Shown in pieces: positions 39,127 to 54,540 of a stretch of 64,000 nt of DNA (the stretch's first letter is position 1; every line of letters begins with the position of its first letter). Source of the DNA: Streptosporangiaceae bacterium (GTDB taxonomy: Bacteria; Actinomycetota; Actinomycetes; Streptosporangiales; Streptosporangiaceae); contig DATNIU010000249.1 of NCBI GenBank assembly GCA_035604275.1, forward strand, positions 2,587 through 66,586, in the 5' to 3' direction. The notes under the pieces are model-generated. The model was not told the DNA's origin. It saw only the letters and a list, made by a program, of their open reading frames with translations, and ran no database searches. The translations under genes were made by a program, and so were the position numbers.

Positions 39127-39972
39127 TCAGACTCCGGCGGCGACCCGGTCGGTGATCCCCTGCCACCATCCGGGCTCGGGCCTGGCGGTCTCGATCCACC
39201 AGGTCGCCCCCGCCTTTTCGTAGGCGGCCGCCAGCTCGGCGACCTCGGCCGGCTCTCTGGCCACCTCGGCCCAGACGACCAGGTCGTACCCGTCGAGCTG
39301 GCCGCGGATGGCGCGGATCCGGTCGCCGGTTTCCGCGATGTCCGACGACGTCGGCCTGACGAGCGCGCGATCGCCGAACCTGATCGGCACCATTCCGTCC
39401 CACCGGGCGGCCCGGGCGATCGGCCTGCTGGCGGGCAGCACTCCCCCGACCCAGACCGGTATCCTGGGCCGCTGCACGGGCAGCGGCGTGAACCGGACCG
39501 GATCGACGGTGAAGTGCCGCCCTGAGTAGGAGAAACGCTCGCCGGTCCAGAGGCCGGCGAGCACGTCGAGGCCCTCGTCAAGCAGCTCGGCGCGCTCCCG
39601 GTCTCCCGACGGCTCACCGAAGATGCCGAAGTCGCCGTAGGCAGGCGAGCCGATGCCCACCCCGAGGATGACCCGGCCGCCGCTCAGCCGGTCGAGCGTG
39701 GTCGTCACCCTGGCCAGCTGCCATGGACGGCGGCGCGGCACGGGCGTGATCATCGTCCCGATCCTGATCCGGCTCGTCCTCGCCGCCACCGCGGCCAGGA
39801 TCAGCCAGGGATCGAGGATCGGCGGCCCGTCGCCGCTATTGGAGAACACGATGTGGTCCCAGAGGAAGAAGCCGTCGAAGCCGGCCCGCTCGGTCCGCAC
39901 CCCGAGCTCGATCAGCTCGGCCGGGTCCTCGCCGAAGTTGGGCACGGCTATCCCGCGCTGAAGCGTGGCCAT
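39127..39972 (-). CDS. LLM-class flavin/F420-dependent oxidoreductase
   Basis: AGFDGFFLWDHIVF...AAVAARTSRIRIGTMITPVPRRRPWQLARVTTTLDRLSGGRVILGVGIG...GRHFTV...PVWVGG. Confidence 0.85.
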   Translation of the reverse strand: MATLQRGIAVPNFGEDPAELIELGVRTERAGFDGFFLWDHIVFSNSGDGPPILDPWLILAAVAARTSRIRIGTMITPVPRRRPWQLARVTTTLDRLSGGRVILGVGIGSPAYGDFGIFGEPSGDRERAELLDEGLDVLAGLWTGERFSYSGRHFTVDPVRFTPLPVQRPRIPVWVGGVLPASRPIARAARWDGMVPIRFGDRALVRPTSSDIAETGDRIRAIRGQLDGYDLVVWAEVAREPAEVAELAAAYEKAGATWWIETARPEPGWWQGITDRVAAGV

Positions 39973-40049: not shown

Positions 40050-40811
40050 TCAGGCGACGCGGCTCAGCGCGGAGAATCCGCCGCGGCTGGCCAGGATGCG
40101 CTTCAGCGCGGCGGGACCTCCGGCCCGTACTGCCAGGTGGGGCTCGGCCAGCCGGCGCTGGGCGGCCGCGTCGCCCGCGAACGCCAGGCAGCACTCCTCT
40201 GGCTCGATGTTCGCCAGCGCCAGGATCGCGCCGGTACCGCCCATCGGCCCGGCCAGCGCGAGCAGCGCCGACGACCCGACGTAGATCGACCCCTGGTAGT
40301 GCGCGAGCTCGTCGAGCAGCCGGTCGGGGCTGCCCGAGGAGTCCTTGATCCCGATCACGTCCAGGCCTGCGAGCTCGTCGACCGGGACACCGGGCGACGA
40401 GACCCAGGGAACGTGATAGGCGAGCACTGGCCGGCCCGTCGCCTGCGCCGCGACCGAGGCGTAGAAACCCCGCAGGTCAGCCGAGCCAGGCGGCGGGTAG
40501 GCGAGCACGGCGTCGGCGCCCGCGCGCACGGCGGCGGCGGTGAGCGCGGCGGCGTGCTCACCCGACTGAGCTCCGGTGCCGGCCAGGACCGGGACCGGTG
40601 CGGGCACCGCATCCCTGACCGCACGGATCATCCTCACCCGCTCGGCGTCGGTCAGCGTTCCGGCCTCCCCGGTCGTGCCGCATACCAGCACCGCCCGCAT
40701 GCCGCGGGCGGCGAGACCGGCCGCATGGGCGGCCGTCGCGTCCTCGTCGACCGCCCCGCTGGCATCGAACACCGTGACCAGCGCTACGCCGACACCACTG
40801 AAGAGCTCCAC
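40050..40811 (-). CDS. Dihydrodipicolinate synthase/N-acetylneuraminate lyase family (class I aldolase) protein
   Basis: GVGVALVTVFDASGAVDEDA...VLVCGTTGEAGTLTDAERV...VLAGTG...YHVP...IGIKDSSG. Start set to GTG 40811 (GGAGG upstream). Confidence 0.8.
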   Translation of the reverse strand: MELFSGVGVALVTVFDASGAVDEDATAAHAAGLAARGMRAVLVCGTTGEAGTLTDAERVRMIRAVRDAVPAPVPVLAGTGAQSGEHAAALTAAAVRAGADAVLAYPPPGSADLRGFYASVAAQATGRPVLAYHVPWVSSPGVPVDELAGLDVIGIKDSSGSPDRLLDELAHYQGSIYVGSSALLALAGPMGGTGAILALANIEPEECCLAFAGDAAAQRRLAEPHLAVRAGGPAALKRILASRGGFSALSRVA

Positions 40812-40869
40812 CGCGCCTCCGCCTCGTCTGCCTGGTAACCAGCATGCCCTCTTGTCTATACTAATTTCA

Positions 40870-40882
40870 GTCGACAATCGAC
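40870..40882. promoter_or_regulatory. GTCGACAATCGAC motif, copy 1 (candidate GntR/FCD operator) in the divergent DapA-like/SDR promoter
   Basis: Identical 13-mer at 47743-47755 and a variant at 47594-47606; all three lie in low-GC intergenic DNA. Confidence 0.45.
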
Positions 40883-40901
40883 AATACGAGTGGGCGCGGT
40901 C

Positions 40902-40964
40902 CACCAGCAGCACCAGTTCACCAGCAGCACCAGTTCACCAGCAGCACCAGTTCACCAGCAGCAC
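40902..40964. repeat. 17-bp tandem repeat CACCAGCAGCACCAGTT x3.7 in the divergent promoter
   Basis: Read directly. The unit length is not a multiple of 3. Confidence 0.9.
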
Positions 40965-40989
40965 TGCGGGTAGAGGAGAGACAGGAGAG

Positions 40990-41796
40990 ATGCCGGTGAC
41001 CGAGCACCGCTTCGATGAGCAGGTCGCGATCGTCACCGGAGGGTCCAACGGCATCGGGCGCGCCATCACCGAGTGCTTCGCCGAGCAGGGCGCGTCCGTC
41101 GTGGTCTGCGATCTGGCCGACTCCGGATACTTCGCCGGCCATCCGCGCGTGGTCACGGTCGTCGGGGACGTGGCGTCCGCTGGCCTGGCGCAGGAAGCGG
41201 TCGCTACCGCCGCCGGCCGGTTCGGCCGCGCCGACATCCTGGTCAACGACGCGGCGAGCTATCCGGACGGCTGGCTGCTCGACATGGCGCCGGCCGACTG
41301 GGATCGCGTCTTCCGGGTCAACGTCACCGGCGCGTTCATGATGACCCAGGCGTTCGCGCGGCACTGCGTGGCCGGCGGCACGTGCGGGTGCGTGGTCAGC
41401 ATCTCGACCGGCTCGGCGCGCAGCCCAAGGCCGGGAGGCGCCGCCTACAGCGCGTCCAAGGCGGCCCTGGAGACCATGAGCAAGGTGTTCGCGATGGAGC
41501 TCGGCGAGCACGGGATCAGGGTCAACGTGGTCGCCCCCGGCTATATCGACGTCCGCGGCTGGAGCGACGCCTATCCTGACCGCGCGCCTGACGACCTGCG
41601 CGCGGCGCTCGTCCGGGCCATTCCGCTTGGCGCGGCTGGCGACCCGCGGGACATTGCCCGCGCGGTGCTGTTCCTGGCATCGCCGCAGGCCCGGCACATC
41701 ACCGGCGCCATCCTCGATGTCGACGGCGGTTCCGGGGCAGGCCGCTTCGCGCTGGGCGGCCACGTGAGCACGGAGCTGAGTCATGCTCGCGGCTAG
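40990..41796 (+). CDS. Short-chain dehydrogenase/reductase (SDR)
   Basis: [40 protein letters not shown]; AGGAGAG-type RBS. Confidence 0.9.
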
Positions 41797-42784
41797 CCCG
41801 GACGTGCCGATCATCGAGACCCGCGAGGTCGCGCGGCATTTCACGGTCGGCCACGGCGGACTTCGGCGTAACCGCCCGGCCCTGAAGGCGGTGGACGGCA
41901 TCTCGCTCGCCATCCGGCGCGGCGAGACGCTGGCCCTGGTCGGCGAGACCGGCTCAGGAAAGACCACCTTCGGACGGCTGCTGCTCGGCCTGTACTCCCC
42001 GACCAGCGGCGACATCCTCTATCAGGGAATGAGCGTGCTCGACCGGCGCAGCGCGGCAGCGCGGACCGTCAGGCGGCACATCCAGGGGGTGTTCCAGGAC
42101 CCCTACTCGTCGCTGAACCCGACGATGACCGTGGGGCAGGCGCTGGCAGAGGTGCTCAAGGTGCACCAGATCGGCGACCGGTCCGAGCGCGCCGGGCTGG
42201 TCGCCGACCTTCTCGAGACCGTCGGGCTCTCCCCCGCGCAGGCCGCTCGCCGCCCGCAGGCCTTCAGCGGCGGTGAGCGGCAGCGAGTAGGCATCGCCCG
42301 GGCGCTCGCCGCGCGGCCAGACGTGGTCGTCGCCGACGAGCCGCTGTCGGCTCTGGACGTCTCGATCCAGGCGCAGGTGCTGAACCTGCTGATCGCGCTT
42401 CAGGAGCAGCGCGGGCTGACCTATCTGTTCGTGACCCACGACCTGGACGTAGCCAGGCACATCAGCCGGAGCACCGCGGTGCTCTACCTGGGCCGGGTGG
42501 TCGAGTACGCGCCGACAGAGGCTCTCTTCGCCGAGCCGCTGCACCCGTACACCCAGGCGCTGGTCAAGGCAGCGCCGCGGCTGACGACCCGGCGCAAGAC
42601 GATCAAGCCCAGCCTGACCGGAGATATCCCGAATGCCATCGAGCGGCCGCCCGGCTGCCACTTCCACCCGCGCTGCCCGCTGGTGATGCCGGTCTGCAGC
42701 GAGATCGAGCCGCCGCTGCTCCCGCTCTCCGGCGGCCGCTCGGTCGCCTGCCACCTGCACGACCCTGACCGGCGGGGGCTTTAG
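41783..42784 (+). CDS. ABC transporter ATP-binding protein, OppF/DppF type (located away from its permeases)
   Basis: [35 protein letters not shown], and a C-terminal Cys motif [11 protein letters not shown]...C. Confidence 0.9.
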
Positions 42785-43428
42785 GCCGGGCTGGCCGCGG
42801 GCCTGCGGCCCGGGTGGCTGTGCTCGGGGAAGCCGGTCAGGTAGTGGTCGCGGATCGCGCGCCGGATCCGCTCGATGTCGCCGCTGTCGACCGAGTCGAG
42901 CAGGTCCCGGTGCCGGTCGACGGCATCGGCCAGGCCGATGCCCTGCCGCTCGATCTCCGATCGCATCAGGGCGCCCATCTGGCTGTTGAGCATGGACCAC
43001 AGCTCCTTCAGCCGCCGCCGTCCAGACACGTCGACAAGCAGCTCGTGAAATCTCGTGTCGCTCTCCACGAGCGCGTCCATGTCGTCGGTCCTGGCCGCCG
43101 CCGACATATGCTCCAGGGCCAGCCGGAGCGACCTGACCAGCTCCTTCTTGCTCTGACCGAGCCCGGACGCCACGCTGGCATCCTCAAGCGCGAAGCGGGC
43201 GTAGCAGACATCCTCCGCGTCCTGCATCGACATCCGGGTCACGACGCTGTAGCGGCGCGGCACGATCGCGATCAGCCCTTCCGCCTGAAGGCTGCGCATC
43301 GCGTCCCTGATGGTGCCCCGGCTGACCCCGAATTCCGCTGCCAGATTGGCCTCGACCAGCCGCGTTTCCGCGGGCAGCTCGTTGTTCAAGATGCGGTGCC
43401 GAAGCGCGCGGCCAACCGCTTCAGGCAA
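42781..43428 (-). CDS. GntR-family transcriptional regulator, FadR/FCD subfamily
   Basis: LVEANLAAEFGVSRGTIRDAMRSLQAEGLIAIVPRRYSVV followed by a helical FCD-like C-domain (RFHELLVDVSGRRRL). Confidence 0.9.
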   Translation of the reverse strand: MPEAVGRALRHRILNNELPAETRLVEANLAAEFGVSRGTIRDAMRSLQAEGLIAIVPRRYSVVTRMSMQDAEDVCYARFALEDASVASGLGQSKKELVRSLRLALEHMSAAARTDDMDALVESDTRFHELLVDVSGRRRLKELWSMLNSQMGALMRSEIERQGIGLADAVDRHRDLLDSVDSGDIERIRRAIRDHYLTGFPEHSHPGRRPAASPA

Positions 43429-43491
43429 TGAGACGTGCTCAAGAATGGCGCCCAGCCTCCCTTCTGCTCTGCCCCGGGCGTCTTCCGCTTG

Positions 43492-44400
43492 TCACTGTAG
43501 CCCGAGCATCGATTCGGTCAGCCCGACATGACCAGTGCTATCTTCCCGCACCCGCAGAGCGTGCCGCGGGCCGGTGAGAATCGGCGTGATGCCCGGTCCG
43601 TGGCCGGGCAGCGGGCTCGAGCCGTGCACGGCTACGCCGATCGTCACCCAGTCGCGCCGGTACCCCATGTTGTATCTCGCATCGAGGTCGGTCACCGCGA
43701 CCAGATCGCCGAGCAGCAGGGCGTCTTCCGCCGCGCCCTGCCCGGAAGCGAGCTGAAGGTCCAGGTCCCAGCTGTGGGCCGGGCGGCCGAGCCCGTTCCC
43801 GGCCATCCTGGCCGGTACGACGAGCCGGACGGCAACGTCGAGGGTGTCGTCCTGGTCGGCGCTGACCGGCAGGCCAGCCAGCAGGCCGGGATCGATGTTC
43901 AGCGCAGTCAAGCTGGCCGGCAGCCAGCCTGGCCGCACGCCCTGGCCGCGGCTCCGCACGCTCACCTGGTCGCCCGGTCGCATCCTGGCCAGGTCGCCAG
44001 CGCGGAACCCGGCGATCACCCGGCCGTTCTCACCGCGCTTGCCGATGACAGCGCCCCGCGCACCGGCGGCCGCGCCGGTGCGTACCACGGCCTCGTTCCC
44101 GATACAGCAGTACAGCGCCAGCGCGTGCCGCGCGGCCTCCACCGGATGGGTCAGGCACGCGCCGGGCGCGGCGTGGTCGCCGAACAGCGCGAAGACCGAG
44201 TCGCCCAGCCGCAGGCCGAGCACGATCCCGCCGTCCCCGGCCGGGACATACGGAGCGCCGTCAGCGTCGATCCGGTACGGGCTGTCGCCAAGCTCCGCGT
44301 GCTCGATCAGGCCGAGCAGACTGACCTCGACCGGCCGATGACCGCCGGCGGCGAGCGCGCTCACCGGCGCCGCCTCTGACCGCCGGATGCGCGCGCTCAC
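43492..44400 (-). CDS. DUF4438-like protein (paralogue B)
   Basis: 302 aa. Shares YRIDADG...GDGGIVLG and DLDARYNMGYRRDWVTIGV...GHGPG...LTGP with the upstream paralogue. The family name is from memory (typical length about 280-300 aa). Confidence 0.6.
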   Translation of the reverse strand: MSARIRRSEAAPVSALAAGGHRPVEVSLLGLIEHAELGDSPYRIDADGAPYVPAGDGGIVLGLRLGDSVFALFGDHAAPGACLTHPVEAARHALALYCCIGNEAVVRTGAAAGARGAVIGKRGENGRVIAGFRAGDLARMRPGDQVSVRSRGQGVRPGWLPASLTALNIDPGLLAGLPVSADQDDTLDVAVRLVVPARMAGNGLGRPAHSWDLDLQLASGQGAAEDALLLGDLVAVTDLDARYNMGYRRDWVTIGVAVHGSSPLPGHGPGITPILTGPRHALRVREDSTGHVGLTESMLGLQ

Positions 44401-45275
44401 GGGTGCCCCTCTTGATCGTCGTGGTACCAGCTGGCCAGGTTGGCCAGCGGATCGTCGACCAGCGCGAACGCGCCGGCCGGGCCGCTCATCAGGGTGCTCG
44501 GCCCGGGTCCGTGACCGAAGAGCAGGCAGCTCCCGGTCGAGATCACCCCGATGGTCACATATCCGGGCCGGTAGCCACGGCCGTACCTGTGGTCCTGATC
44601 AGCCAGCGCGACGACGTCACCGACCCGCAGGCTCTCCAGGCCGAGTGACAGATCATCGCCGAGACCCGGGTAAGCGCCCATCAGGTCGGTGTTCGCGTAC
44701 TCCGAGATCATGCCGACCCCGGCGCCGATCGCCTCGGCCGGCACCCGCGCGGCGACGTGCACCTCGAGCCTGCCGTCCGCCCCGGTACCGCCGGGCATCG
44801 CATCGATCAGCCCGGGCGAGCAGTTCTTGACGACGATCGCCGGATGCTCGGCCAGGCGCAGGCCCTGGCCGGTCGCGGTGATCGTGACGGCGTCACCGGT
44901 CGTGATCCTCGTCCCGACCGGCCCGGGGAAGTCGGCGAGCACGTAGGCATGCTGGCCGATGACGTGGCCGACCTGGCCGGCGGCCGGCCCGGACTCCAGC
45001 CGCACCTGGTTGCCGACGCAGGACAGGAACTGCACGGCCAGGTTGGCCGCGTGGTCGCGATGCCTGATCGATGCCCCGGGCTCCAGGTGGTCGGCGGCAT
45101 AGCCGGTCGCCGGATCCCCGCAGTGCACGCCGAGCGTCATGCCGCCCATCCCGGGCAGCACGAACGGCTGGCCGTCCGGGCCGACCCGGTATCCGTGCCG
45201 GTCAGCCAGGGCCGGCCAGACCTCGCCGGTGAGCACCTGGGTGACCAGCCGCGCCGAGTTCGTGACCACCTTCAT
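44397..45275 (-). CDS. DUF4438-like protein (paralogue A)
   Basis: 292 aa: YRVGPDG...GMGGMTLG and DQDHRYGRGYRPGYVTIGV...GHGPG...MSGP. 4-nt overlaps at both ends. Confidence 0.6.
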   Translation of the reverse strand: MKVVTNSARLVTQVLTGEVWPALADRHGYRVGPDGQPFVLPGMGGMTLGVHCGDPATGYAADHLEPGASIRHRDHAANLAVQFLSCVGNQVRLESGPAAGQVGHVIGQHAYVLADFPGPVGTRITTGDAVTITATGQGLRLAEHPAIVVKNCSPGLIDAMPGGTGADGRLEVHVAARVPAEAIGAGVGMISEYANTDLMGAYPGLGDDLSLGLESLRVGDVVALADQDHRYGRGYRPGYVTIGVISTGSCLLFGHGPGPSTLMSGPAGAFALVDDPLANLASWYHDDQEGHP

Positions 45276-46411
45276 GGCGCGTCCTGGCCGGCCGGCGCCA
45301 GCGGAACGCTGACCCAGGCGCGGCGACGGTATGACGCCTCGAAGGCGTTGATCGTCTCCTGCACCAGCGCCGCCTGGCCGAAGTCACCCTGGCTGACCGG
45401 GCTGTCGCCGCTGATCTCGGAGATGAAGTCGGCGACGAGGCTGGAATAGAAGAGGGACTCCCAGGGCTCGCCCGAATGGCCGCCCTCGGGAAAGAACCTG
45501 GCCGGGATCTCCGCCTCGGTGAACTCGACGGCGTCCTTGCGCGCCGTCCTGATCGTCTGGCAGATCCCGAACTCGTCGACCAGCCGGACGATGATCGCGC
45601 CCTGCGATCCGTAGATCCGGGCCTCGATGCCCGGGTAGTTCCCCACGGTCACGTACGACGACTGGATGGAGGCCAGCGCGCCGGAGCCGAACTCCGCGAT
45701 CCACATGTCGCCGTCGTCGATGTTGGCCCTGGTCATCTTGCCCGTGTCGCGGACCATGCGGACCGGGACGAAGTTGCGCATGGTGCCGACCACGGCCCGC
45801 AGCGGCGCCGCCAGCCACCAGTGCATGATGTCGATCACCGGCGCGCCGTAGCCTTCGATGGACGACACGGCGATGACGGCCGGATCGGCGTCCGGGTCGA
45901 CCTGCCGGAGCGGCGTCGCCGGGTCGATCCACTGGCTGTTCTGCTCGAAGCCGTTGAACATGTAAGGCTCGCCCACGAATCCGTCGTCGATCAGCTGCTT
46001 GGCGTACTGGATCGCCGGGGCGTACCTGAAGGTGAATCCCACCTTCGTCTTCAGGCCCTTCGCGCTGGCCAGGTCGGCGGCCTGCCTGGTCCTGGCGTAG
46101 TCGGGGTGCACGGGCTTCTCGCAGAGCACGTGCTTGCCGGCGCAGAGCGCATCCCAGGAGATGCCGAAATGCGGCTGGTTGCCCGTGACCACGTCGATCA
46201 CGTCGATGCCGGGATCGCCGAGCAGCTCGCGGTAGTCGGCGACCGCACGGGGAATGCCGAACTCCGCCGCCGTCCGCGCGAGCACGTCCGCGTTGGTGTC
46301 GGCCACCGCTGCCACGCGCGCTCGCCGGTCCCGCTGCCAGCCGGGGATGTGCGCGTGCCGCGCCCATCGCCCGGCGCCGACCACAGCGACCGCGAGCTGG
46401 TCTGAAACCAT
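45272..46411 (-). CDS. Gfo/Idh/MocA-family NAD(P)-dependent oxidoreductase
   Basis: VAVVGAGRWARHAHIPGW...GKHVLCEKPV...KVGFTFRYAPA. Confidence 0.9.
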   Translation of the reverse strand: MVSDQLAVAVVGAGRWARHAHIPGWQRDRRARVAAVADTNADVLARTAAEFGIPRAVADYRELLGDPGIDVIDVVTGNQPHFGISWDALCAGKHVLCEKPVHPDYARTRQAADLASAKGLKTKVGFTFRYAPAIQYAKQLIDDGFVGEPYMFNGFEQNSQWIDPATPLRQVDPDADPAVIAVSSIEGYGAPVIDIMHWWLAAPLRAVVGTMRNFVPVRMVRDTGKMTRANIDDGDMWIAEFGSGALASIQSSYVTVGNYPGIEARIYGSQGAIIVRLVDEFGICQTIRTARKDAVEFTEAEIPARFFPEGGHSGEPWESLFYSSLVADFISEISGDSPVSQGDFGQAALVQETINAFEASYRRRAWVSVPLAPAGQDAP

Positions 46412-46480
46412 CGAGCCTGTCCCCCATCTCTCTCGTGAGTGCCCGCCGCCGGTCCGTGCCCTCGCTGCCTGCTGCCCATG

Positions 46481-46540
46481 CCCGGCCGCCCGGTACCCGG
46501 CCGCTCGGTACCCGGCCGCTCAGTACCCGGCCGCCCGGTC
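46481..46540. repeat. 15-bp tandem repeat (CCCGGCCGCYCRGTA x4) straddling the stop codon of the 2-hydroxyacid dehydrogenase gene
   Basis: Read directly. The TGA (46520-46522) sits where the sibling units have CGA/CGG. Confidence 0.9.
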
Positions 46541-47554
46541 GAAGACGTTCCTGAGCGATTCACCGGCCAGCCAGCGCCGGAGATTGTCGATGAACAGATC
46601 GGTGAGCAGCCGGTTCTCGGCGGAGACCGTGGCCGCCGAGTGCGGCGAGATCAGCACGTTGTCCAGGCACCACAGCGGCGAGCCGGCCGGCAGCGGCTCG
46701 GTCTCGAAGACGTCCAGGCAGGCCCCGCCGAGGCGGCCGGACGTCAGGCCGTCGACCAGCGCGGCCTCGTCGATGACCTGGCCGCGGGCCAGGTTCACGA
46801 CGACGGCCCCCGGCCTGAGCAGCTCGAGCTCCCGCCTGCCGATCAGCTTGCTGGTCCGCTTGGTCAGCGGGCAGGCCAGGATCAGCGCGTCCGTCCCGGG
46901 AAGCACCGAGCCGATCTGATCATCGGCTACGTAGGACGTCACGCCTGGCACGTCGTAGTCGCGTCCCGCCCGGCCGGCCCCGCACACCACGACCCCGGCC
47001 GCCGCGAGCAGCCTGGCCACCTCCCGCCCGACACCGCCCAGCCCTACCAGCAGCGCCCGCGTCCCGGCCAGCTGCGCGGTCGTGTGCCGCTCCCAGTGCC
47101 GCGCCGCCTGCTGGCTCCTGAGCCGGGGCACCCGCTTGGCGAAGTAGAGCAGCCCGAGTAGCGCGAACTCGCTCAGCGGCACGCCATGAACCCCGGCGGC
47201 CGTGGTGCAGACGATGGGCGCGTCGATCAGGCCGGTACGCTCGAGCAGGCCGCCGATGCCCGCGCTCGTGCCCTGTATCCAGCGCAGGCCGGGGCAGTTG
47301 ACACCGATCTGCTCCGGAGCCTGCCAGTCGAAGTCGAAGCTGACGTCCGCTGCCGCCCGCAGCCGTGCCCACCTGGCCAGGCCGGCGGCATCCAGATCGC
47401 GCGGAATCCCGGTGTGGTCGCACGGATAGCGGGGCACGGGCAGCAGGTCAGGCGCGTAGAGCAGGCGGACCCGCGGATCGGCGGCGCCGATCAGCTCCGC
47501 GTGCTCAGGGTCGAGCGGAGACGCGATCAGCACGCGCACAACGTCGGGCGTCAT
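46520..47554 (-). CDS. D-isomer-specific 2-hydroxyacid dehydrogenase family protein
   Basis: LVGLGGVGREVARLL (NAD fold), VVNLARGQVIDEAAL, LDVFETEPLP, NVLISPHSA. Confidence 0.85.
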   Translation of the reverse strand: MTPDVVRVLIASPLDPEHAELIGAADPRVRLLYAPDLLPVPRYPCDHTGIPRDLDAAGLARWARLRAAADVSFDFDWQAPEQIGVNCPGLRWIQGTSAGIGGLLERTGLIDAPIVCTTAAGVHGVPLSEFALLGLLYFAKRVPRLRSQQAARHWERHTTAQLAGTRALLVGLGGVGREVARLLAAAGVVVCGAGRAGRDYDVPGVTSYVADDQIGSVLPGTDALILACPLTKRTSKLIGRRELELLRPGAVVVNLARGQVIDEAALVDGLTSGRLGGACLDVFETEPLPAGSPLWCLDNVLISPHSAATVSAENRLLTDLFIDNLRRWLAGESLRNVFDRAAGY

Positions 47555-47593
47555 CGACTCTTCCGGATCGGCACGGCCGCTCCTCCCCTATTG

Positions 47594-47606
47594 TCGACAG
47601 TCAACG
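47594..47606. promoter_or_regulatory. GTCGACAGTCAAC motif variant (candidate GntR operator), proximal to the minus-strand operon
   Basis: 11/13 match to the 13-mer. Lies within TTGTCGACA, a perfect TGTCGACA palindrome. Confidence 0.4.
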
Positions 47607-47742
47607 AGTATCGCAGCTCCTTGATTCAGTCAAGACCGCGGGCGCGGTCATCCCGAGGCGAATTTTGCCGTTCAGGCCGGTTATGCCAGCAGAATCGTCC
47701 TATTGACGACGGTCTGGAGCGTCTCTAAGGTAAAGACACGCT

Positions 47743-47755
47743 GTCGACAATCGAC
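47743..47755. promoter_or_regulatory. GTCGACAATCGAC motif, copy 2 (candidate GntR operator), 16 bp upstream of the SBP start
   Basis: Identical to 40870-40882. Preceded by T, which gives the TGTCGACA palindrome. Confidence 0.45.
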
Positions 47756-47770
47756 GAAATGAGGTGCATC

Positions 47771-49330
47771 ATGCTCCGAGCTCACCGGCTACGGACGCTC
47801 AGCCTCGGCCTGATGGCGATCGCCCTAGTCTCCGCTGGCTGCTCGAGCGCCGGGTCGAGCGGCGGGTCAGGCCCGGCGGCCGGCAGCAGCACCCTGGTGA
47901 TCGCCAATGCCGTCCGGGTCGACACGCTCGACCCCGAGGCGAACTCGGTGAACGAGTCCATCTGGCTGGACCAGAACCTCTACAGCCGCCTGCTCCAGCC
48001 CAACGCGACCGGCACCGGGCTGCTGCCCGACCTCGCCACCTCGTGGAACATCTCGGCAGACGGGCTCACCTACACCTTCCACCTGCGCGACGCCAGGTTC
48101 TCCAACGGCTCGCCGGTCACCGCCAGCGATGTCGTGTTCTCGATCGACAGGTCGCGCAAGTTCGCCGGCGGCTGGGGCTTCCTGCTGACGCCGGTCAAGA
48201 CGATCACCGCGCGGGGCGCCCGCACCGTCGTGATCACGCTGTCCCAGAAACACGCGCCGCTGCTCGCTGACCTGGCGATGTACGCGTACTCGATCGTCCC
48301 GGCCAAGCTGGTTCAGTCGCAAGGCAAGGCCTTCTTCGCCCACCCGGTCGGCAGCGGGCCGTTCTACGTGACGTCCTACAACCCCGACAGCGAGGTCGAC
48401 CTGGCGCGCAACCCGCACTTCTACGGCACCAAGCCGAAGATCAGCAAGATCAGGGTCGTGATCGTCCCCAACGACAACACCAGGGTCCTGATGCTGGAGA
48501 GCAAGAAGGCCGACGTGATCGAGAATCCGCCGGGCAACCTCACCAGCCAGATCGACGGCACGCCCGGGCTGCACGTCGACCTCTTCCCGTCCACCAGGGT
48601 CGACTTCATCCAGCTCGACGAGCACTACGCGCCGCTGGCGAAGCTCGCGGTGCGCGAGGCGCTGAACTACGCCATCGACCGGAGCGCGATCGTCAAGCTG
48701 GCCTACCAGGGCGACGCGATCGCCGGCGCCTCGTTCATGCCCTACAAGATGCAGTACTTCGACTCCTCGATCGCGCCGTATCCGTACGACCCGGCCAAGG
48801 CCAGGCAGCTGCTCGCGCAGGCCGGCTATCCGCACGGGTTCAAGACGTTCCTGATCACGGTCAGCGGCGACATCGCAGGCCAGGCCGAGGCGGTCGTGGT
48901 GAAGTCCGAGCTGGCGCAGGTGGGGATCACCGTCAGCATCCAGTCCTACGAGCTGCTCACCGCCTACGCCAAGGAGGACGGCGGTCATTCCGAGATGGGC
49001 GAGCGGTACTGGACGAACGACATCATCGACCCCGACGAGGTCGCGACCTTCGGCGCCGACTGCCAGGGCGGCGCCAACGCCTTCAACAGCTACTGGTGCA
49101 GCACGCAGGCGAACAACCTGGTCAGCCAGGCCCGGCTGGAGCTCAACAGCGCCAGGCGCCAGGCGCTGTACGACCAGATCCAGCAGATCGTCTACGCCCA
49201 GTCGCCGTTCATCGTGACCGACTACAGCCCGTACAGGTACGGCGTCGGCAGCTGGGTGAAGGGCTTCCACGTGACGCCGCTCGGCAACTACGACCTGTCG
49301 CTGGAGACCCTGACCGTCGGCCAGCACTAG
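47771..49330 (+). CDS. ABC transporter substrate-binding lipoprotein, family 5 (peptide/opine/nickel type)
   Basis: MLRAHRLRTLSLGLMAIALVSAGCSS lipobox, LVIANAVRVDTLDPE, LATSWNISADGLTYTFHLR. ATG 47771 (GAGGTG upstream) is preferred over 47759. Confidence 0.9.
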   Translation: MLRAHRLRTLSLGLMAIALVSAGCSSAGSSGGSGPAAGSSTLVIANAVRVDTLDPEANSVNESIWLDQNLYSRLLQPNATGTGLLPDLATSWNISADGLTYTFHLRDARFSNGSPVTASDVVFSIDRSRKFAGGWGFLLTPVKTITARGARTVVITLSQKHAPLLADLAMYAYSIVPAKLVQSQGKAFFAHPVGSGPFYVTSYNPDSEVDLARNPHFYGTKPKISKIRVVIVPNDNTRVLMLESKKADVIENPPGNLTSQIDGTPGLHVDLFPSTRVDFIQLDEHYAPLAKLAVREALNYAIDRSAIVKLAYQGDAIAGASFMPYKMQYFDSSIAPYPYDPAKARQLLAQAGYPHGFKTFLITVSGDIAGQAEAVVVKSELAQVGITVSIQSYELLTAYAKEDGGHSEMGERYWTNDIIDPDEVATFGADCQGGANAFNSYWCSTQANNLVSQARLELNSARRQALYDQIQQIVYAQSPFIVTDYSPYRYGVGSWVKGFHVTPLGNYDLSLETLTVGQH

Positions 49331-49415
49331 CCAGCGCGGGGCGCAGCGGCCGGCCGGGGCCGCTGCGCCCCGCGCCCGCGGCCGGATCAGGGCGCGAGAT
49401 TCCAGGAGGTGCGCG

Positions 49416-50366
49416 GTGAGTCGCTTCGGTACCCTGCCCAGGCGGCTCGTGCACCTGGTCGTGATCCTTTTCGGGATCACCCTGGTGACCTTCTTCCTGC
49501 TCAGGCTGATTCCAGGGGATCCGGCGCTCGCCATACTCGGCAGCAGCTACACGCACCAGCGGGCGACCGCCATCGACATCTCGCTCGGCCTCAACAAGCC
49601 GATCTGGACGCAGTACGCGCTGTTCATGGGCCGGCTGTTCCGCGGCAATCTCGGCTACTCGTTCTTCTATAACGCTCCGGCCACGACGGTGATCGTCCAG
49701 CACGTGCCGCCGACGCTCTTCCTCGTGGTCTACAGCGCCGTGCTCGCCGGGCTGATCGCGCTGCCGATCGGGTTCATCTCAGGGCTGCGCCGGGGAGGCG
49801 TAGTCGACCAGGCGAGCCGGGTCTTCTTCACCGTCAGCTTCGCGATGCCGGCCTTCTGGCTCGGCATCATCTTGCTGCTCATTTTCAGCGTGCATATCCC
49901 GGTCTTCCCGATCAGCGGCTTCGGCTCTGGATTCGCCGGGCACCTGTACTACCTGTTCCTGCCCGCGCTGACCATCGCGCTCGGCTTCGCGACCGTCCTG
50001 GTCCGCAGCCTCCGCGCGGCGACCATCGCGACGCTGCAGGCCGAGTTCATCGACACCGCCCGGATGAAGGGGATCTCCCGCGCCCGCGTGCTGCGGCGCC
50101 ACGTGTTCAGGAACGCGGTGCTCGCGGTGGTCGCGGTCTACGGCGTGAACCTGGCCTACCTGATCAGCGGCACGGTGCTGGTCGAGAACGTGTTCTCGCT
50201 GCCAGGCCTCGGCTCGCTGCTCGTCAACTCGGTCTCCGACCGTGACTACCCGGTCGTCCAGGGGGTCGCGCTGCTCTTCGCCGTGCTCATCGTGGCGATC
50301 AACCTGCTGACGGACGTGACGCAGGCGAGCCTCGATCCGCGCGTCGGGCAGGAGATCGGCGAATGA
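49416..50366 (+). CDS. ABC transporter permease (DppB/OppB-like)
   Basis: RRLVHLVVILFGITLVTFFLLRLIPGDPA...EFIDTARMKGIS. Confidence 0.9.
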   Translation: MSRFGTLPRRLVHLVVILFGITLVTFFLLRLIPGDPALAILGSSYTHQRATAIDISLGLNKPIWTQYALFMGRLFRGNLGYSFFYNAPATTVIVQHVPPTLFLVVYSAVLAGLIALPIGFISGLRRGGVVDQASRVFFTVSFAMPAFWLGIILLLIFSVHIPVFPISGFGSGFAGHLYYLFLPALTIALGFATVLVRSLRAATIATLQAEFIDTARMKGISRARVLRRHVFRNAVLAVVAVYGVNLAYLISGTVLVENVFSLPGLGSLLVNSVSDRDYPVVQGVALLFAVLIVAINLLTDVTQASLDPRVGQEIGE

Positions 50367-51256
50367 GCCAGACGACCTGGGCGACGAACCCGTCCGCGAT
50401 GCTGCTCACGGTCGCCGAGCGCGCCGCCAGGCGCACCCGCCGGTCCGGCCGCCGGCGCCTGGTGCTCCTCGCCGGACTCGCGATGCTCGCCGTCGCGATC
50501 GTCGCCACGATCGGGGCGCCGCTGCTGATCAGCCAGTCCCCGACCGCGCTCGACGTGCTCCGGCCGCTCGCACCGCCGGTGGCCTCCGGCCATCTGCTCG
50601 GGACCGATCAGTACGGGCGCGACATCCTGGCCAGGATTCTGTACGGCGGCCGGATAGACCTCGCGATCGCCTTCGGCGCCACCAGCGTCACGCTGGTCTT
50701 CGGCACCGTCGTCGGGCTGGTGGCCGGCTATTTCGGCGGCTGGGTGGACAACCTGATCATGCGCATCGTCGACCTGTTCTTCGCCTTCCCGTTCCTGGTG
50801 CTGATCATCGCGATCATCGCGATGCTCGGGCCGAGCATCTTCAACATGTTCGTCGCGATCTGGATCACCAGCTGGGTGAGCTACGCCAGGATCATGCGCG
50901 CCCAGACCGTGGTCGCCAAGAAGCAGCAGTACGTCCTGGCCGCGCGGGCGCTCGGCTACGGCAGGCTGCGCGTGATGCTCAGGCACATCCTGCCGAACAC
51001 GGCCTCGGCGGTGATCATCTTCTCGATGGTGGACGCCATCGGCAACATCATCCTGGCCGCCTCGCTGGGCTTCCTCGGTCTCGGCGCGCAGCCGCCGACC
51101 CCGGAGTGGGGAACGATGATCTCGGACGGCCAGAGCTACATCCTGTCGTCCTGGTGGATCGCGACGCTGCCCGGCCTGGCGATCGTCTTCGTCGGCGTGG
51201 CGTTCAGCCTGATCGGTGACGGGCTCGCCGACGTGCTCAGGCCGGGTGACCGGTGA
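50363..51256 (+). CDS. ABC transporter permease (DppC/OppC-like)
   Basis: HLLGTDQYGRDILARILYG...YVLAARALGYG...ILPN. ATGA overlap. Confidence 0.9.
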   Translation: MSQTTWATNPSAMLLTVAERAARRTRRSGRRRLVLLAGLAMLAVAIVATIGAPLLISQSPTALDVLRPLAPPVASGHLLGTDQYGRDILARILYGGRIDLAIAFGATSVTLVFGTVVGLVAGYFGGWVDNLIMRIVDLFFAFPFLVLIIAIIAMLGPSIFNMFVAIWITSWVSYARIMRAQTVVAKKQQYVLAARALGYGRLRVMLRHILPNTASAVIIFSMVDAIGNIILAASLGFLGLGAQPPTPEWGTMISDGQSYILSSWWIATLPGLAIVFVGVAFSLIGDGLADVLRPGDR

Positions 51257-52347
51257 GCTCCGACGAGCCGCCCCGCCCCGAGCCGCGCGCCAGCACTGAG
51301 CCGCGCGCCAGCGCTGAGCCGCCCGCCAGCGCTGAGGTGCGGGCGGGCGCCGGGCCTGATCCCCTGCTGACGGTCCGCGACCTGCGCACCTATCTCGCCA
51401 CTGGGCAAGGGGTGGTACGGGCGGTCGACGGCGTGTCGTTCACGGTCGGGCAGGCCGAGGTGCTCGGCGTCGTCGGGGAGAGCGGCTGCGGCAAGACCGT
51501 GACCTGCCGCACGATCATGGGTCTCATGCCGCGACGCACCGCGTACAGCAGCGGAGAGGTCATCTACCATCCCCGCGGCGACGGCAGCATCCTCGACCTC
51601 TCGCAGGCAGAGCTGCAGAAACTCCGGGGCGCTCAGCTGGCGATGATCTTCCAGGACCCGATGACCGCGCTCAACCCGGTGCGCAGCATCGGCGACCAGC
51701 TGCTCGAGGCCGTCACCGCGCACGCGAAGCTGCCGAGGCCGCGGGCCCACGACCGGGCCGTTGACCTGCTCACCAGGGTCGGCATCCCGGCCCCCGGCCG
51801 GCGGATGCGCGACTACCCGTTCCAGTTCAGCGGGGGGATGCTCCAGCGCGCGCTGATCGCCATCGCGCTCGCGTCATCGCCGAGGCTGCTGCTGGCCGAC
51901 GAGCCGACCACGTCCCTCGATGTGATCATCCAGGACCAGATCCTGAGCCTGCTGCTCGAGCTGCAGCGGGACACCGGGATGAGCATGATCCTGGTCAGCC
52001 ATGACCTGGCCGTCATCACCGAGGTCTGCGATCGGATCATCGTCATGTACGGCGGCCAGGTGGTCGAGGAGGGCGAGACGGCGACGATCATCACCGCGCC
52101 TGCCCACCCCTACACCAGGGCACTGCTCGACGCGCTGCCGGAGGCCGGCCGGCCCGGTCAGCTGACCAGCATTCCTGGCAAGCCGCCCAGCCTGATCGAT
52201 GTCCCGGCAGGCTGCCGCTTCGCGCCGCGATGCCCGCTGGCGACCGATAAGTGCACCAGCTGGCAGACCACGCTAGTCGAGGCCGGCGGGCTCGGGCACC
52301 GGGCCCGGTGCTGGCGGCACGGAGAAATCGGAGGGGCGAAAGCATGA
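51253..52347 (+). CDS. ABC transporter ATP-binding protein, OppD/DppD type
   Basis: GESGCGKT, FSGGMLQRALIAIAL, LLADEPTTSLD, and C-terminal CRFAPRCPLATDKC. The N-terminus carries an 18-bp x3 in-frame repeat (51280-51333); an alternative GTG start lies at 51337. Confidence 0.9.
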   Translation: MSSDEPPRPEPRASTEPRASAEPPASAEVRAGAGPDPLLTVRDLRTYLATGQGVVRAVDGVSFTVGQAEVLGVVGESGCGKTVTCRTIMGLMPRRTAYSSGEVIYHPRGDGSILDLSQAELQKLRGAQLAMIFQDPMTALNPVRSIGDQLLEAVTAHAKLPRPRAHDRAVDLLTRVGIPAPGRRMRDYPFQFSGGMLQRALIAIALASSPRLLLADEPTTSLDVIIQDQILSLLLELQRDTGMSMILVSHDLAVITEVCDRIIVMYGGQVVEEGETATIITAPAHPYTRALLDALPEAGRPGQLTSIPGKPPSLIDVPAGCRFAPRCPLATDKCTSWQTTLVEAGGLGHRARCWRHGEIGGAKA

Positions 52348-53492
52348 CGGGCAGGCGACTTGGCATCGGCCTGATCGGGGCCGGCCGCTGGGCCAGCTGG
52401 GCGCACCTGCCCGGCTGGGCCCGAGACGACCGATGCGAGATCGTCGGCGTCTGCGACCGCGAGGTCGACCGGGCGCGGGCGGCGGCCGGCCAGTACGGCG
52501 CCACGGTTGTCACCGCCGACTACCGCGAGCTGCTCAAGCGCGACGATATCGACATCATCGACGTGGTCACCAGGGATTCCGAGCACTTCGAGATCAATCT
52601 GGCGGCGATCGAGGCCGGAAAGCACGTGCTCAGCGAGAAGCCCGTGGCGCATGATTTCCGCGACGTCGCCGCGGTCGCCGACCTGGCCGCGGCGAGAGGA
52701 CTGAAGACGAAGGTCGGCCTCACCTTCAGGTACAGCCCCGCCGTCAGGTACCTCAAGGACATGATCGACAGCGGCAGCCTCGGCACGCCGTTCATCTACA
52801 ACGCCTACGAGCAGAACTCGCAGTGGCTGAATCCGGCCACGCCCCTGCGGAGCGGCGAGCGGGCCGGCGAGCGCGCGCTCCAGGTGGCGTCGCTCGAGGG
52901 CTACGGCGCGCCGGTCATCGATATCGGGCACTGGTTCATGGGATCGGACCTCACCGCGGTGGTCGGCGTGATGCGCAACTTCGTCCCCGAGCGCATGATC
53001 GCCGACACCGGCCTGCTGGCCAGGGTGAACATCGACGACGGCGATATCTTCATTGGCGAGTTCGCCAGCGGGGCGATCTGCTCGGTGCAGACCAGCTTCG
53101 TGACCGTCGGGAACTACCCGGGCATCGAGGTCCGGGTCTACGGCAGCGAGGGCGCGGCAATCGCCCGGCTGGTCGAGGAGTTCGGGATCTGCGAGACGCT
53201 CAAGGTAGCCAGGCCAGACGATGTGGAGTTCAGGGAGGTCGAGGTGCCCGCGCGCTACTACCCGCCCGGCGGCAGCCCGCGCGAGTCCTGGCGGACCCTG
53301 TACTACGCCAACCTCACCGCCAACTTCGCCAGCGAGGTGCTCGGCGAGATCGCCGGTAACGAGGGCAACTTCCACGACGGCCTCTGGGTGCAGGAGGTAG
53401 TGAACGCCGTGGAGATCTCGCACCATGAGCGCCGCTGGGTTAGCCTGCCGCTCGACGCCACACGGCGGCCAGCTGACCCGCAGGCCGGCTGA
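52344..53492 (+). CDS. Gfo/Idh/MocA-family oxidoreductase (about 50% similar by eye to 45272-46411)
   Basis: IGLIGAGRWASWAHLPGW...GKHVLSEKPV...KVGLTFRYSPA. ATGA overlap with the ATPase gene. Confidence 0.9.
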   Translation: MTGRRLGIGLIGAGRWASWAHLPGWARDDRCEIVGVCDREVDRARAAAGQYGATVVTADYRELLKRDDIDIIDVVTRDSEHFEINLAAIEAGKHVLSEKPVAHDFRDVAAVADLAAARGLKTKVGLTFRYSPAVRYLKDMIDSGSLGTPFIYNAYEQNSQWLNPATPLRSGERAGERALQVASLEGYGAPVIDIGHWFMGSDLTAVVGVMRNFVPERMIADTGLLARVNIDDGDIFIGEFASGAICSVQTSFVTVGNYPGIEVRVYGSEGAAIARLVEEFGICETLKVARPDDVEFREVEVPARYYPPGGSPRESWRTLYYANLTANFASEVLGEIAGNEGNFHDGLWVQEVVNAVEISHHERRWVSLPLDATRRPADPQAG

Positions 53493-53541
53493 GGCCGGCC
53501 GTCAGCTACCGGGATCAGGCAGAGAGGCAGGACACCAGGCG

Positions 53542-54540
53542 ATGACCATCACTCCCGCCCTGCGCTGGGGAATCATCGGCACGGCGAACATCGCGCGGGC
53601 GGCCTTCCTGCCCGGCCTGCGCGCGGCCGGGGGCACGGCCAGCGCGGTGGCAGGCCGTGACCTGGCCAGAGCCGAGCGGTTCGCGGCCGACAACGGCGTC
53701 GATCGCGCGGTGGCCGGCTACCAGAGCCTGATCGACGATCCCGGCATCGATGCGCTCTACATTCCGCTGCCCAACTCACTGCACGCGGAATGGACCACCC
53801 GTGCGCTCGAGGCGGGCAAGCCGGTGCTGTGCGAGAAGCCGCTCTGCGGAACGCTCGCGGACACCGAGCGCGTGCTCGGTGTCGCGCGGCAGACCGGCAC
53901 CCTGCTCTGGGAGGCCTTCGTCTTTCCGTTCGGCGAGCACATGCGGGTGATCCGCTCGCTGATCGACGATGGCTCGATCGGCGAGCTCAGGGAGGTCCAG
54001 TCCGGTTTCCATTTCAGCATCGGCCGGCCGGACGACATCAGATTGTCGGCCGGGCTTGAGGGCGGCGCGCTGCTGGACGTCGGGTGCTATCCGGTCCGGC
54101 TGGCCCAGGAGCTGCTCGGCCCCGGCTACCTCAGTGCCTGGGCGGTCCGCGAGACCGGCGGCGCGGGCGTGGACATCGAGACCTGGGGAACGCTCGGCTA
54201 CTCCGGCGGCCGCAGGCTGCTGCTGTCCTGCGGGATGCGGCGCGGGTACGACACGTTCAGCCGGCTGCTCGGCACCGACGGGCAGATCCACGTCAGCAAC
54301 CCCTTCCACCCCGGCCTGGACGACGAGATCGTTCTTCATCCGGTCCGCGGCGAGACGACCCGGTTTCCCGCGAGCACGGGCGAGCCCTCGTTCACCGCCG
54401 CCATCCGTCACATCAGCGCGGCGGTCACGGGCACCGAGCCGCCCCGCTTGCTCGCCGCGGATGCCTCGCTGCCGACCGCCCGCGCCCTGCACGACCTGGC
54501 TGCCGCGGCGCTCGGCTCAGATGCCGCTCCGTCGACTTAG
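53542..54540 (+). CDS. Gfo/Idh/MocA-family oxidoreductase (distinct subtype)
   Basis: WGIIGTANIARAAFLPGL...YIPLPNSLHAEW...GKPVLCEKPL. Confidence 0.85.
   Translation: MTITPALRWGIIGTANIARAAFLPGLRAAGGTASAVAGRDLARAERFAADNGVDRAVAGYQSLIDDPGIDALYIPLPNSLHAEWTTRALEAGKPVLCEKPLCGTLADTERVLGVARQTGTLLWEAFVFPFGEHMRVIRSLIDDGSIGELREVQSGFHFSIGRPDDIRLSAGLEGGALLDVGCYPVRLAQELLGPGYLSAWAVRETGGAGVDIETWGTLGYSGGRRLLLSCGMRRGYDTFSRLLGTDGQIHVSNPFHPGLDDEIVLHPVRGETTRFPASTGEPSFTAAIRHISAAVTGTEPPRLLAADASLPTARALHDLAAAALGSDAAPST

Follow-up and report, generated by a model that had tools for sequence, protein, structure and literature searches.

GntR-family regulators of the FadR subfamily share a described operator consensus, NyGTM-N0-1-KACNy, with TKGT/ACMA boxes (PMC4494728). 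NanR, which belongs to this subfamily, binds tandem direct repeats of the sequence TGGTATAW (PMC4494728). For the Pseudomonas repressor PrpR the predicted motif is ATTGTCGACAAT, and the protein bound the upstream region of prpR in electrophoretic mobility shift assays (PMC9765439). The present analysis concerns a stretch of 64,000 nucleotides (64 kb) from a Streptosporangiaceae bacterium (contig DATNIU010000249.1), referred to below as the window, in which copies of a 13-bp motif lie in two divergent promoter regions of a 15-gene cluster. With good confidence, we propose that the three copies of this motif are operators of the GntR/FCD protein encoded at 42781-43428 in the same cluster, and that this protein would be an autoregulated repressor of four transcription units.

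A conserved motif in the promoters of four transcription units

The four units are arranged as two divergent pairs. Unit 1 (-) comprises a DapA-like gene and the gene of a luciferase-like (LLM) oxidoreductase, and unit 2 (+) the genes of a short-chain dehydrogenase/reductase (SDR) and of an OppF-like ATPase. Unit 3 (-) contains, in this order, a D-isomer-specific 2-hydroxyacid dehydrogenase (HADH), a Gfo/Idh/MocA oxidoreductase (Gfo1), two DUF4438 paralogues (DUF4438a and DUF4438b) and the GntR gene. Unit 4 (+) consists of a family-5 solute-binding protein (SBP), two permeases, an OppD-like ATPase and two further Gfo/Idh/MocA oxidoreductases (Gfo2 and Gfo3).

The 13-mer was searched for throughout the window (G+C about 70%), to which all motif counts for this genome refer, and expected counts were obtained from 100 shuffles. 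The exact word, GTCGACAATCGAC, was found at 40870-40882 (+) and 47743-47755 (+), that is, twice against 0.00 expected, and the claim of the earlier note that an identical 13-mer occurs in two divergent promoter regions was thereby confirmed. That note had also placed a close variant at 47594-47606. The variant, GTCGACAGTCAAC, is indeed present, but its true span is 47593-47605, one base to the left. Both copies in the 47.6-47.8 kb region carry the palindrome TGTCGACA (47592-47599 and 47742-47749) and the copy at 40870 is preceded by A, giving AGTCGACA, just as had been described. When up to two mismatches were allowed, the window yielded four matches against a mean of 1.99 expected; 15 of the 100 shuffles reached four, and the count is not significant. 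The fourth of these matches, at 54902, falls inside the open reading frame (ORF) of an MMPL-family transporter and resembles chance. Beyond the exact duplicate the window alone proves little; it is conservation across about 45 species that shows, at the level of sequence comparison, that the motif is not a chance repeat.

Using DUF4438a as the query against species-representative genomes, 80 loci were obtained, onto which the 15 window proteins were mapped for synteny. Most of these loci are from metagenome-assembled genomes of Streptosporangiaceae from soil, with identities of up to 89%, and 152 candidate stretches encode a relative of DUF4438a. About 45 Streptosporangiaceae species-level genomes were found to have the complete 15-gene cluster with its gene order and orientations unchanged, and the conservation of the gene set that the earlier note had left to be checked was thus established. 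The syntenic proteins are 60-90% identical, with per-protein medians of 65-86%.

The motif is retained at three orthologous positions in these loci (sites A, B and C, corresponding to the copies at 40870, 47593 and 47743). At site A the 13-mer is exact in 38 of 40 loci, including the window, and an AAT extension is also invariant. Site B reads GTCGACAGTCAAC in 30 and GTCGACAATCAAC in 8 of 41 loci, with an invariant ATT flank. At site C, 43 of 47 loci have the exact 13-mer, which stands between conserved flanks, (t/c)T...GAAA. Within the sites the information content comes to about 2 bits, as against 0-0.3 bits a few bases outside, and the motif stays constant among relatives whose divergent intergenic regions differ in length and sequence. 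In 1.47 Mb of related loci there were about 150 matches with at most one mismatch, of which 2 lay inside mapped cluster genes and about 3 had no mapped cluster gene within 700 bp. The motif is therefore essentially confined to the promoters of this cluster in the related DNA, and the common dispersed repeat that would have refuted the earlier note was not seen there. Invariance at three orthologous positions in 40-47 species is phylogenetic footprinting that strongly supports the reading of the repeated word as a cis-regulatory site.

The motif had also been said to tie four transcription units together. Each unit keeps a site in nearly every species, and genes that have moved to other operons have a site there too, in agreement with that statement. 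Rearranged clusters carry sites in new promoters, namely in the divergent regions Gfo2/DUF4438a, Gfo2/HADH and GntR/Gfo1, and directly upstream of the DapA-like gene. One relative (L020) retains the site upstream of the DapA-like gene with no SDR ortholog opposite; a 37%-identical SDR homologue is found downstream. Another (L057) has four successive operons, each with a site. Two of them code for enzymes that the window lacks, one for an amidohydrolase and a creatininase-like protein, the other for an ApbA-like reductase together with DapA-like and class A beta-lactamase-like proteins.

The motif recurs beside GntR genes and DUF4438 pairs in Thermoleophilia, Acidimicrobiia and Chloroflexota. 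In loci of Solirubrobacterales, Acidimicrobiia and Trebonia the genes form one long operon with a site, often the fuller palindrome CGATTGTCGACAATCGAC, upstream of the SBP gene. The order is SBP, OppD, OppF, two permeases, Gfo1, two TldD/PmbA-like proteins, DUF4438a, DUF4438b and GntR, followed in some by LLM. Gfo1 is 65-70% identical in the Thermoleophilia and Acidimicrobiia clusters. The GntR of the long operons is 45-50% identical to that of the window overall, and the first 65 residues, which form the winged helix-turn-helix (wHTH) domain, are nearly the same.

A blind scan of all genomes for the 15-mer TTGTCGACAATCGAC gave at least 120 matches, which are mostly chance and give no regulon size. 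Among the 120 matches listed, 25 stretches contain a gene for an FCD-GntR homologue, and in 10 of the 120 the centre of the site lies 51-151 bp upstream of an FCD-GntR gene, at 83-96 bp in most. These 10 sites belong to Bacilli, Alphaproteobacteria and Chloroflexota. In two Chloroflexota loci among the matches listed, the site stands between a divergent GntR gene and DUF4438 pair; far fewer than one case of this kind would be expected by chance. Kribbella was over-represented, with 9 of the 120 stretches among the matches listed (L090, L107, L116, L137, L147, L148, L152, L187 and L190) and two species having two loci each; L107 holds the perfect 20-bp form of the palindrome described below. 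The DUF4438 cluster was not found within these 8-kb Kribbella stretches. In this cultured genus, the sites could belong to a related GntR with a separate regulon of several operons.

Anatomy of the sites and predicted promoters

Operator A, GTCGACAATCGACAAT, occupies 40870-40885 (+) in the divergent region between the DapA-like and SDR genes and contains two TCGACAA heptads. Operator B lies at 47590-47607 (-), reads ATTGTCGACAGTCAACGA on the plus strand and cGTTGACTGTCGACAAT in the sense of HADH, and is conserved across the relatives. Operator C, CTGTCGACAATCGACGAAA, is the SBP-proximal site at 47741-47759 (+), in which the 13-mer and its flanks are conserved. Common to all sites is the sequence (T/C)TGTCGACAATCGAC(R)A. 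Each consists of the palindrome TTGTCGACAA and an extra TCGAC(R)A arm, which in all cases is directed at the nearest gene (the SDR gene at site A). Together, the GntR-type core palindrome (T)TGTCGACA(A) and the arm place the TCGA boxes in heptad phase. Operator A is a perfect TCGACAA tandem, reported by Tandem Repeats Finder (TRF) as TCGACAA x2.1, and some other genomes have the palindrome in a perfect 20-bp form, GTCGATTGTCGACAATCGAC. The distance from B to C varies from 120 to 276 bp across species, which argues against a fixed DNA loop.

Promoter boxes were read from alignments of 39-40 unique upstream regions per site. For the SDR/OppF unit, the putative -10-like hexamer TATACT is at 40857-40862 (+), 7 nt upstream of operator A; in 39 unique sequences the consensus cTATAcT is found at this fixed distance. 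A conserved -35 element was absent from the upstream alignments of site A. The conserved 3' flank of operator A, ACAATa, is the reverse complement of a possible -10 of the DapA-like/LLM unit, and the candidate hexamer TATTGT at 40881-40886 (-) would overlap the operator. The predicted promoter of the HADH operon (47607-47633, -) comprises TTGACT (47633-47628), a 15-nt spacer and GATACT (47612-47607). GATAnT is kept 1 nt upstream of site B in the HADH direction, and TTGAC lies 28-31 nt further up in most loci. For the SBP operon the predicted promoter (47703-47731, +) has TTGACG, a 17-nt spacer and TAAGGT. Its conserved form is TTGACg, a spacer of about 17 nt and TAcAgT, ending about 11 nt upstream of site C, and 28 of the 40 unique sequences have TTGAC at -40 relative to the 13-mer. 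This promoter would put operator C at about +3 to +20. From these alignments we infer that the operators cover the transcription starts.

The predicted 5' leader of the SDR gene also contains a perfect 17-bp tandem repeat, CACCAGCAGCACCAGTT x3.7 (TRF score 126), at 40902-40964, between operator A and the SDR start codon at 40990. Related loci have a different sequence in this region, and the repeat looks specific to this genome.

The GntR protein as the predicted repressor

The GntR gene encodes a protein of 215 residues with both domains expected of the FadR/FCD subfamily: a GntR wHTH domain (PF00392, E 7e-15, residues 3-59) and an FCD domain (PF07729, E 5e-21, residues 76-196). Its best NCBIfam match was phnR_burk, with 104 bits against a cut-off of 271. 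Two paralogue types of this protein accompany the motif in the relatives, and the wHTH (residues 1-65) is conserved between them. Both types occur in one neighbourhood in six loci (L021, L040, L050, L056, L062 and L063; 47-50% as against 70-74% identity), where each adjoins operons preceded by the same 13-mer, the effector domains having diverged. The two types could be two regulators that use one operator type and respond to different ligands. Spongiactinospora gelatinilytica (L070) has genes for DUF4438a, DUF4438b and a GntR of the second type, on a contig that stops short of any operator position.

Each operator closely follows a conserved -10-like box and lies over the predicted transcription start. 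From this placement, the GntR protein would, without inducer, block the DapA-like/LLM, SDR/OppF, HADH-to-GntR and SBP-to-Gfo3 units, the first of them because operator A also overlaps the candidate -10 of the divergent DapA-like unit. The GntR gene is itself part of the HADH operon, so that the regulator would be autoregulated. The imported compound, or a catabolite of it, would bind the FCD domain and release the repressor.

That the local FCD-type GntR is the binder had been predicted in the earlier note, and the prediction gains indirect support from the gene's position, its co-occurrence with the motif and the fit of the operators. The motif might instead be the operator of a transcription factor encoded elsewhere, the local GntR being irrelevant or binding something else, and the deviation of operator A and of the asymmetric TCGAC extension from the textbook GntR palindrome speaks for such a factor. 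However, the window cluster encodes no regulator besides GntR, which accompanies the motif in all complete loci, those of Chloroflexota included. The core fits the PrpR motif and the FadR-subfamily consensus, site B as TTGT-CG-ACAG and site C as CTGT-CG-ACAA, with site A providing the GTCGACAA half. Among the matches listed in the 15-mer scan, moreover, the sites about 85 bp upstream of FCD-GntR genes come from unrelated phyla. A factor encoded elsewhere is, in our judgment, quite unlikely. The GntR protein could also bind these sites as an activator or dual regulator. Some FadR-subfamily proteins do activate, E. coli FadR activating fabA, and the promoter positions used here are predicted ones. 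The sites nevertheless lie downstream of the -10-like boxes and 15-50 nt from the start codons, which is typical of repression, and PrpR, the closest relative in terms of the motif, behaves as a repressor (PMC9765439). Activation or dual regulation appears unlikely.

Two further explanations dispense with a DNA-binding protein. The conserved word could act in RNA, as a hairpin (GUCGA-CAA-UCGAC) in the 5' untranslated region with an effect on translation or stability: three predicted leaders would contain the element, which keeps a constant orientation to the downstream gene and forms a 5-6 bp hairpin in minimum-free-energy structures. On the other side, the folded leaders do not exceed shuffled sequences in stability (z = 0.0, 0.76 and 1.03), and a search of them against Rfam gave no match. 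Among natural variants, roughly as many disrupt the stem (GTCGACAATCAAC, GTCAACAATCGAC and GTCCACAATCGAC) as preserve it (with G-U pairs in GTTGAC variants), operator A must serve the opposite strand too, and the sequence matches a known protein-binding consensus. On the lack of an Rfam match, the shuffle-like folding and the stem-breaking variants, the RNA-level explanation was rejected; we rate it as very unlikely. The remaining explanation, a functionless chance or dispersed genomic repeat such as the remnant of a small mobile element, would accord with the window count at up to two mismatches, which is not above chance, in a scan of this genome that covers the 64-kb window only. Two exact copies where 0.00 are expected, positions conserved in about 45 species with varying flanks, and the confinement to cluster promoters in 1.47 Mb of related DNA all point the other way. 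The comparative sequence data already contradict such a repeat, to which we give hardly any credence.

Repression by the local GntR protein is thus the reading we prefer, and several points have to be set against it. In operator A just one half of the TTGT/ACAA palindrome is present, and a simple model of a dimer on a palindrome does not account for the constant, asymmetric TCGAC extension. The assignment of the promoter boxes is drawn from alignments, and a simple sigma-70 consensus scan reported none of them, the HADH promoter being missed because its spacer is 15 nt. Finally, the regulon described here is that of the window, to which the motif scan of this genome extends.

Genes of the cluster

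All 15 gene calls of the earlier note were confirmed by Pfam. In unit 1, the LLM oxidoreductase (39127-39972, -; Bac_luciferase, 1.1e-43) has F420-dependent families as its closest ones and scored just under the cut-off of the F420-dependent model TIGR03619 (158.5 as against 166.9 bits). The DapA/DHDPS-family class I aldolase-like gene (40050-40811, -; 253 aa) matched Pfam DHDPS (PF00701, 2.8e-30) over profile positions 2-213 of 289 only, and all equivalog models were below cut-off. Its start is the GTG at 40811, which is preceded by GGAGG; 40847 is not a start codon. A long ORF from 40913 would cross operator A, and a start upstream of the motif was ruled out. Unit 2 is made up of the SDR gene (40990-41796, +; adh_short_C2, 5e-56) and the OppF-like ATPase gene (41783-42784, +; ABC_tran and oligo_HPY).

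HADH (46520-47554, -; 2-Hacid_dh_C, 7.7e-45) is the first gene of unit 3 and is followed by Gfo1 (45272-46411, -), DUF4438a (44397-45275, -; 292 aa), DUF4438b (43492-44400, -; 302 aa, with N-terminal and C-terminal DUF4438 domains) and, as the last gene, GntR (42781-43428, -). The Gfo1/DUF4438a and DUF4438a/DUF4438b junctions both have 4-nt stop/start overlaps, which suggests that these three genes may be translationally coupled. The OppF-like (+) and GntR (-) genes are convergent, and their 3' ends share the four bases 42781-42784; no intrinsic terminator can therefore lie between them. In several Streptosporangiaceae relatives, inserts of 1.5-4 kb separate the two genes (L008, 12481-13884; L012, 12477-16204; L016, 14782-15558). 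Their products, which are a PQQ-like beta-propeller protein, a histidine kinase or a TIM barrel of the xylose-isomerase-like kind, offer no consistent clue.

Unit 4 begins with the SBP gene (47771-49330, +; Dpp/Opp type, SBP_bac_5, 4e-93). The ATG at 47771 is most likely its start, because the ATG at 47759 is not conserved and a GGGG/GGAG Shine-Dalgarno sequence is conserved in the relatives. It is followed by the two permease genes (49416-50366 and 50363-51256, +; BPD_transp_1 twice), the OppD-like ATPase gene (51253-52347, +; ABC_tran and oligo_HPY), and Gfo2 and Gfo3 (52344-54540, +). The ORF of Gfo3 begins at 53425 and the domain at residue 46, and the exact start is uncertain. With SBP_bac_5, two BPD_transp_1 permeases and two oligo_HPY ATPases, all five components of an Opp/Dpp importer are present.

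On the left, the cluster is bordered by an ORF at 38108-38926 (-) with only weak helix-turn-helix, resolvase and HEPN_AbiV-like matches (E ~1e-4), and on the right by the gene of the MMPL-family transporter (54629-57076, -). The motif is absent upstream of both border genes.

DUF4438 and the putative pathway

Both DUF4438 paralogues carry PF14505 and PF20999. DUF4438a matched the PDB protein TM1086 (3DCL/3N99) with E 5e-51. Its AlphaFold2 model had a predicted local distance difference test score of 82.5, and a Foldseek search of the PDB with this model returned only TM1086 (3DCL; TM 0.86), the next matches being small beta-barrels with E > 0.1. The residues D-H, C, N, D, Q, D, D, R and GHGPG are invariant in paralogues a and b and in TM1086; Cys86, His63 and His255 of DUF4438a are among the invariant positions. 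Because both paralogues keep these invariant residues, both probably carry a functional site. When contigs were scanned with TM1086 of Thermotoga maritima, two archaeal loci (about 51% identity) were obtained and no Thermotoga locus; Thermotoga proteins 83-93% identical exist in the protein database, and the pattern-based locus search evidently missed them. Literature matches to 'TM1086' proved to be a C. elegans strain name or a crystallisation list, and the match to 'PF14505' a different family, mis-numbered; these were discarded.

The best PDB match of the SBP was AapF (7KZ8/7KZ9, E 3e-75), followed by DppA, HbpA and AgaA (AgaA, 3e-48). In the structure 7KZ9, AapF binds the small amide HEHEAA. 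For Gfo1 the closest PDB entries were unnamed oxidoreductases and then 6A3F, which we take to be levoglucosan dehydrogenase. The levoglucosan dehydrogenase model, however, scored 110 bits against a cut-off of 650, the IolG model 104 bits against 355, and the glycoside-3-dehydrogenase model was far below its cut-off.

Known routes were compared with the cluster. In the levoglucosan (Lgd), C-glycoside (Dgp) and 3-keto-glycoside routes, a Gfo/Idh/MocA enzyme works with a xylose-isomerase-like TIM-barrel lyase or isomerase. These routes were rejected, as no AP_endonuc_2/xylose-isomerase-like gene is present in the window cluster; the insert of L016 mentioned above does contain a xylose-isomerase-like gene. 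Catabolism of myo-inositol (iol) requires IolG together with the IolE, IolD, IolB and IolC functions, and it was set aside on finding no dehydratase, hydrolase, isomerase or kinase domains in the cluster. The 2-methylcitrate route was dismissed likewise, the prpBCD-type genes being absent from it. Catabolism of opines, Amadori compounds, pantothenate, cyclic amides or phytosiderophores was considered as well, and none of these is claimed. In the earlier note the pathway had not been recognised, and here, too, no characterised route was matched; the cluster is, moreover, widespread and not unique to this genome.

Gfo1, the two DUF4438 proteins and the Dpp-type importer form the conserved core, in which Gfo1 with DUF4438a/b is the most conserved module (65-74% and 51-62% identity across classes). 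Under the same operator, other lineages have TldD/PmbA pairs, an amidohydrolase, and creatininase-like, beta-lactamase-like and AstE/AspA-like proteins, as well as reductases of the ApbA, Ldh_2 and 2-hydroxyacid types. Pairs of the TldD/PmbA family are absent from the window cluster. In a Solirubrobacterales-type cluster (L067, 7099-10004) such a pair, peptidase U62-like, is situated between Gfo1 and the DUF4438 pair, and in L079 (12540-14531) one lies downstream of a motif copy.

The gene content suggests an undescribed catabolic route in which a Gfo/Idh/MocA dehydrogenase and a heteromeric DUF4438 enzyme would carry out the committed step on a small compound imported by the Dpp-type system, a proposal towards which we lean slightly less than away from it. 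A more detailed scheme is more doubtful and is offered tentatively. In it, the Gfo1-DUF4438a/b module would perform this step, possibly as an oxidation followed by bond cleavage, after which the other dehydrogenases and the putative class I aldolase would yield pyruvate and a small aldehyde or acid. The substrate of this scheme may be an amide- or N-linked conjugate of a hydroxy acid or polyol, of the size of a dipeptide or opine, taken up by the Dpp-type importer and broken down without phosphorylation. The hint of an amide- or N-linked conjugate comes from the genes found under the same operator in other lineages.

Both suggestions have to be read beside findings that do not favour them. The literature search found DUF4438 mentioned in no paper and no characterised relative. 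In Thermotoga, Caloranaerobacter, Zhenhengia, Bathyarchaeia and Thorarchaeota, DUF4438 is a single-copy gene among housekeeping or envelope genes, with no conserved partner. Every match of the enzymes, including HADH, to a named NCBIfam model was below cut-off. The accessory enzymes vary by lineage (TldD/PmbA pairs, amidohydrolases, Ldh_2, AstE/AspA-like proteins), and the substrates may therefore differ between lineages.

Comparison with known systems

The proposed regulatory logic, a local FadR-type GntR repressor with a palindromic operator, is ordinary and of a well-known class. The operator itself is, as judged from the comparative data, unusually well defined. Well over a hundred species-level genomes carry the cluster, most of them from uncultured soil lineages of Actinomycetota, and related versions occur in Chloroflexota. 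In each genome the operator marks which genes belong together and separates the core from lineage-specific additions, such as 2-hydroxyacid, SDR and LLM oxidoreductases, the putative DapA-like aldolase, TldD/PmbA pairs and amidohydrolases. The FCD domain and the SBP are two independent baits for the substrate. DUF4438 has a solved structure and no assigned role, and the identity of the substrate would annotate many genomes at once. If the undescribed route is real, it would be the first functional context for DUF4438 and would mean that uncultured soil Actinomycetota, and some Chloroflexota, make wide use of an unrecognised substrate.

Among described proteins, TM1086 (3DCL, 3N99) resembles the DUF4438 paralogues in sequence (37-40% identity), structure (TM-score 0.86) and conserved residues. 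Unlike TM1086 and its relatives in Clostridia and archaea, which are encoded by single-copy genes without catabolic neighbours, the window has two diverged and probably translationally coupled paralogues in what would be a regulated catabolic operon. The importer has the five-component architecture of the AapF/AgaA-type Dpp/Opp importers for small non-peptide ligands, and its SBP is closest to AapF, whereas the OppF-like ATPase is encoded here in a separate, divergently regulated unit with the SDR.

With PrpR, the regulator of the 2-methylcitrate cycle in Pseudomonas and other Proteobacteria, the operators share a 12-nt palindromic core, which is ATTGTCGACAgT at site B and ATTGTCGACAAT in relatives. 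PrpR too is a member of the GntR family. The operators described here differ in their invariant extra TCGAC(R)A arm, and none of the 15 cluster genes has a prpB/prpC/prpD-type domain. The likeness is one of operators and not membership of a PrpR regulon, because the regulated genes are unrelated.

There is also a parallel with the FadR-subfamily repressors of sugar-acid and hydroxy-acid genes. DgoR, LldR, PdhR, GlcC and ExuR/UxuR (Suvorova et al. 2015, PMC4494728) have the same wHTH and all-helical FCD domain as the window GntR. The subfamily also has palindromic operators with TKGT/ACMA boxes, and a local divergon with a transporter and catabolic enzymes, frequently with autoregulation (PMC4494728). 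The distance from GT to AC, by contrast, is 2 nt here (GT-CG-AC) as against the typical 3 nt, and a third half-site is present as a direct repeat at a 7-bp phase. For the reading of direct repeats by FCD regulators NanR provides a precedent, operator A being a tandem of two TCGACAA heptads; the repeat sequence is different, and at two of the three sites the operators described here have a palindromic core as well.

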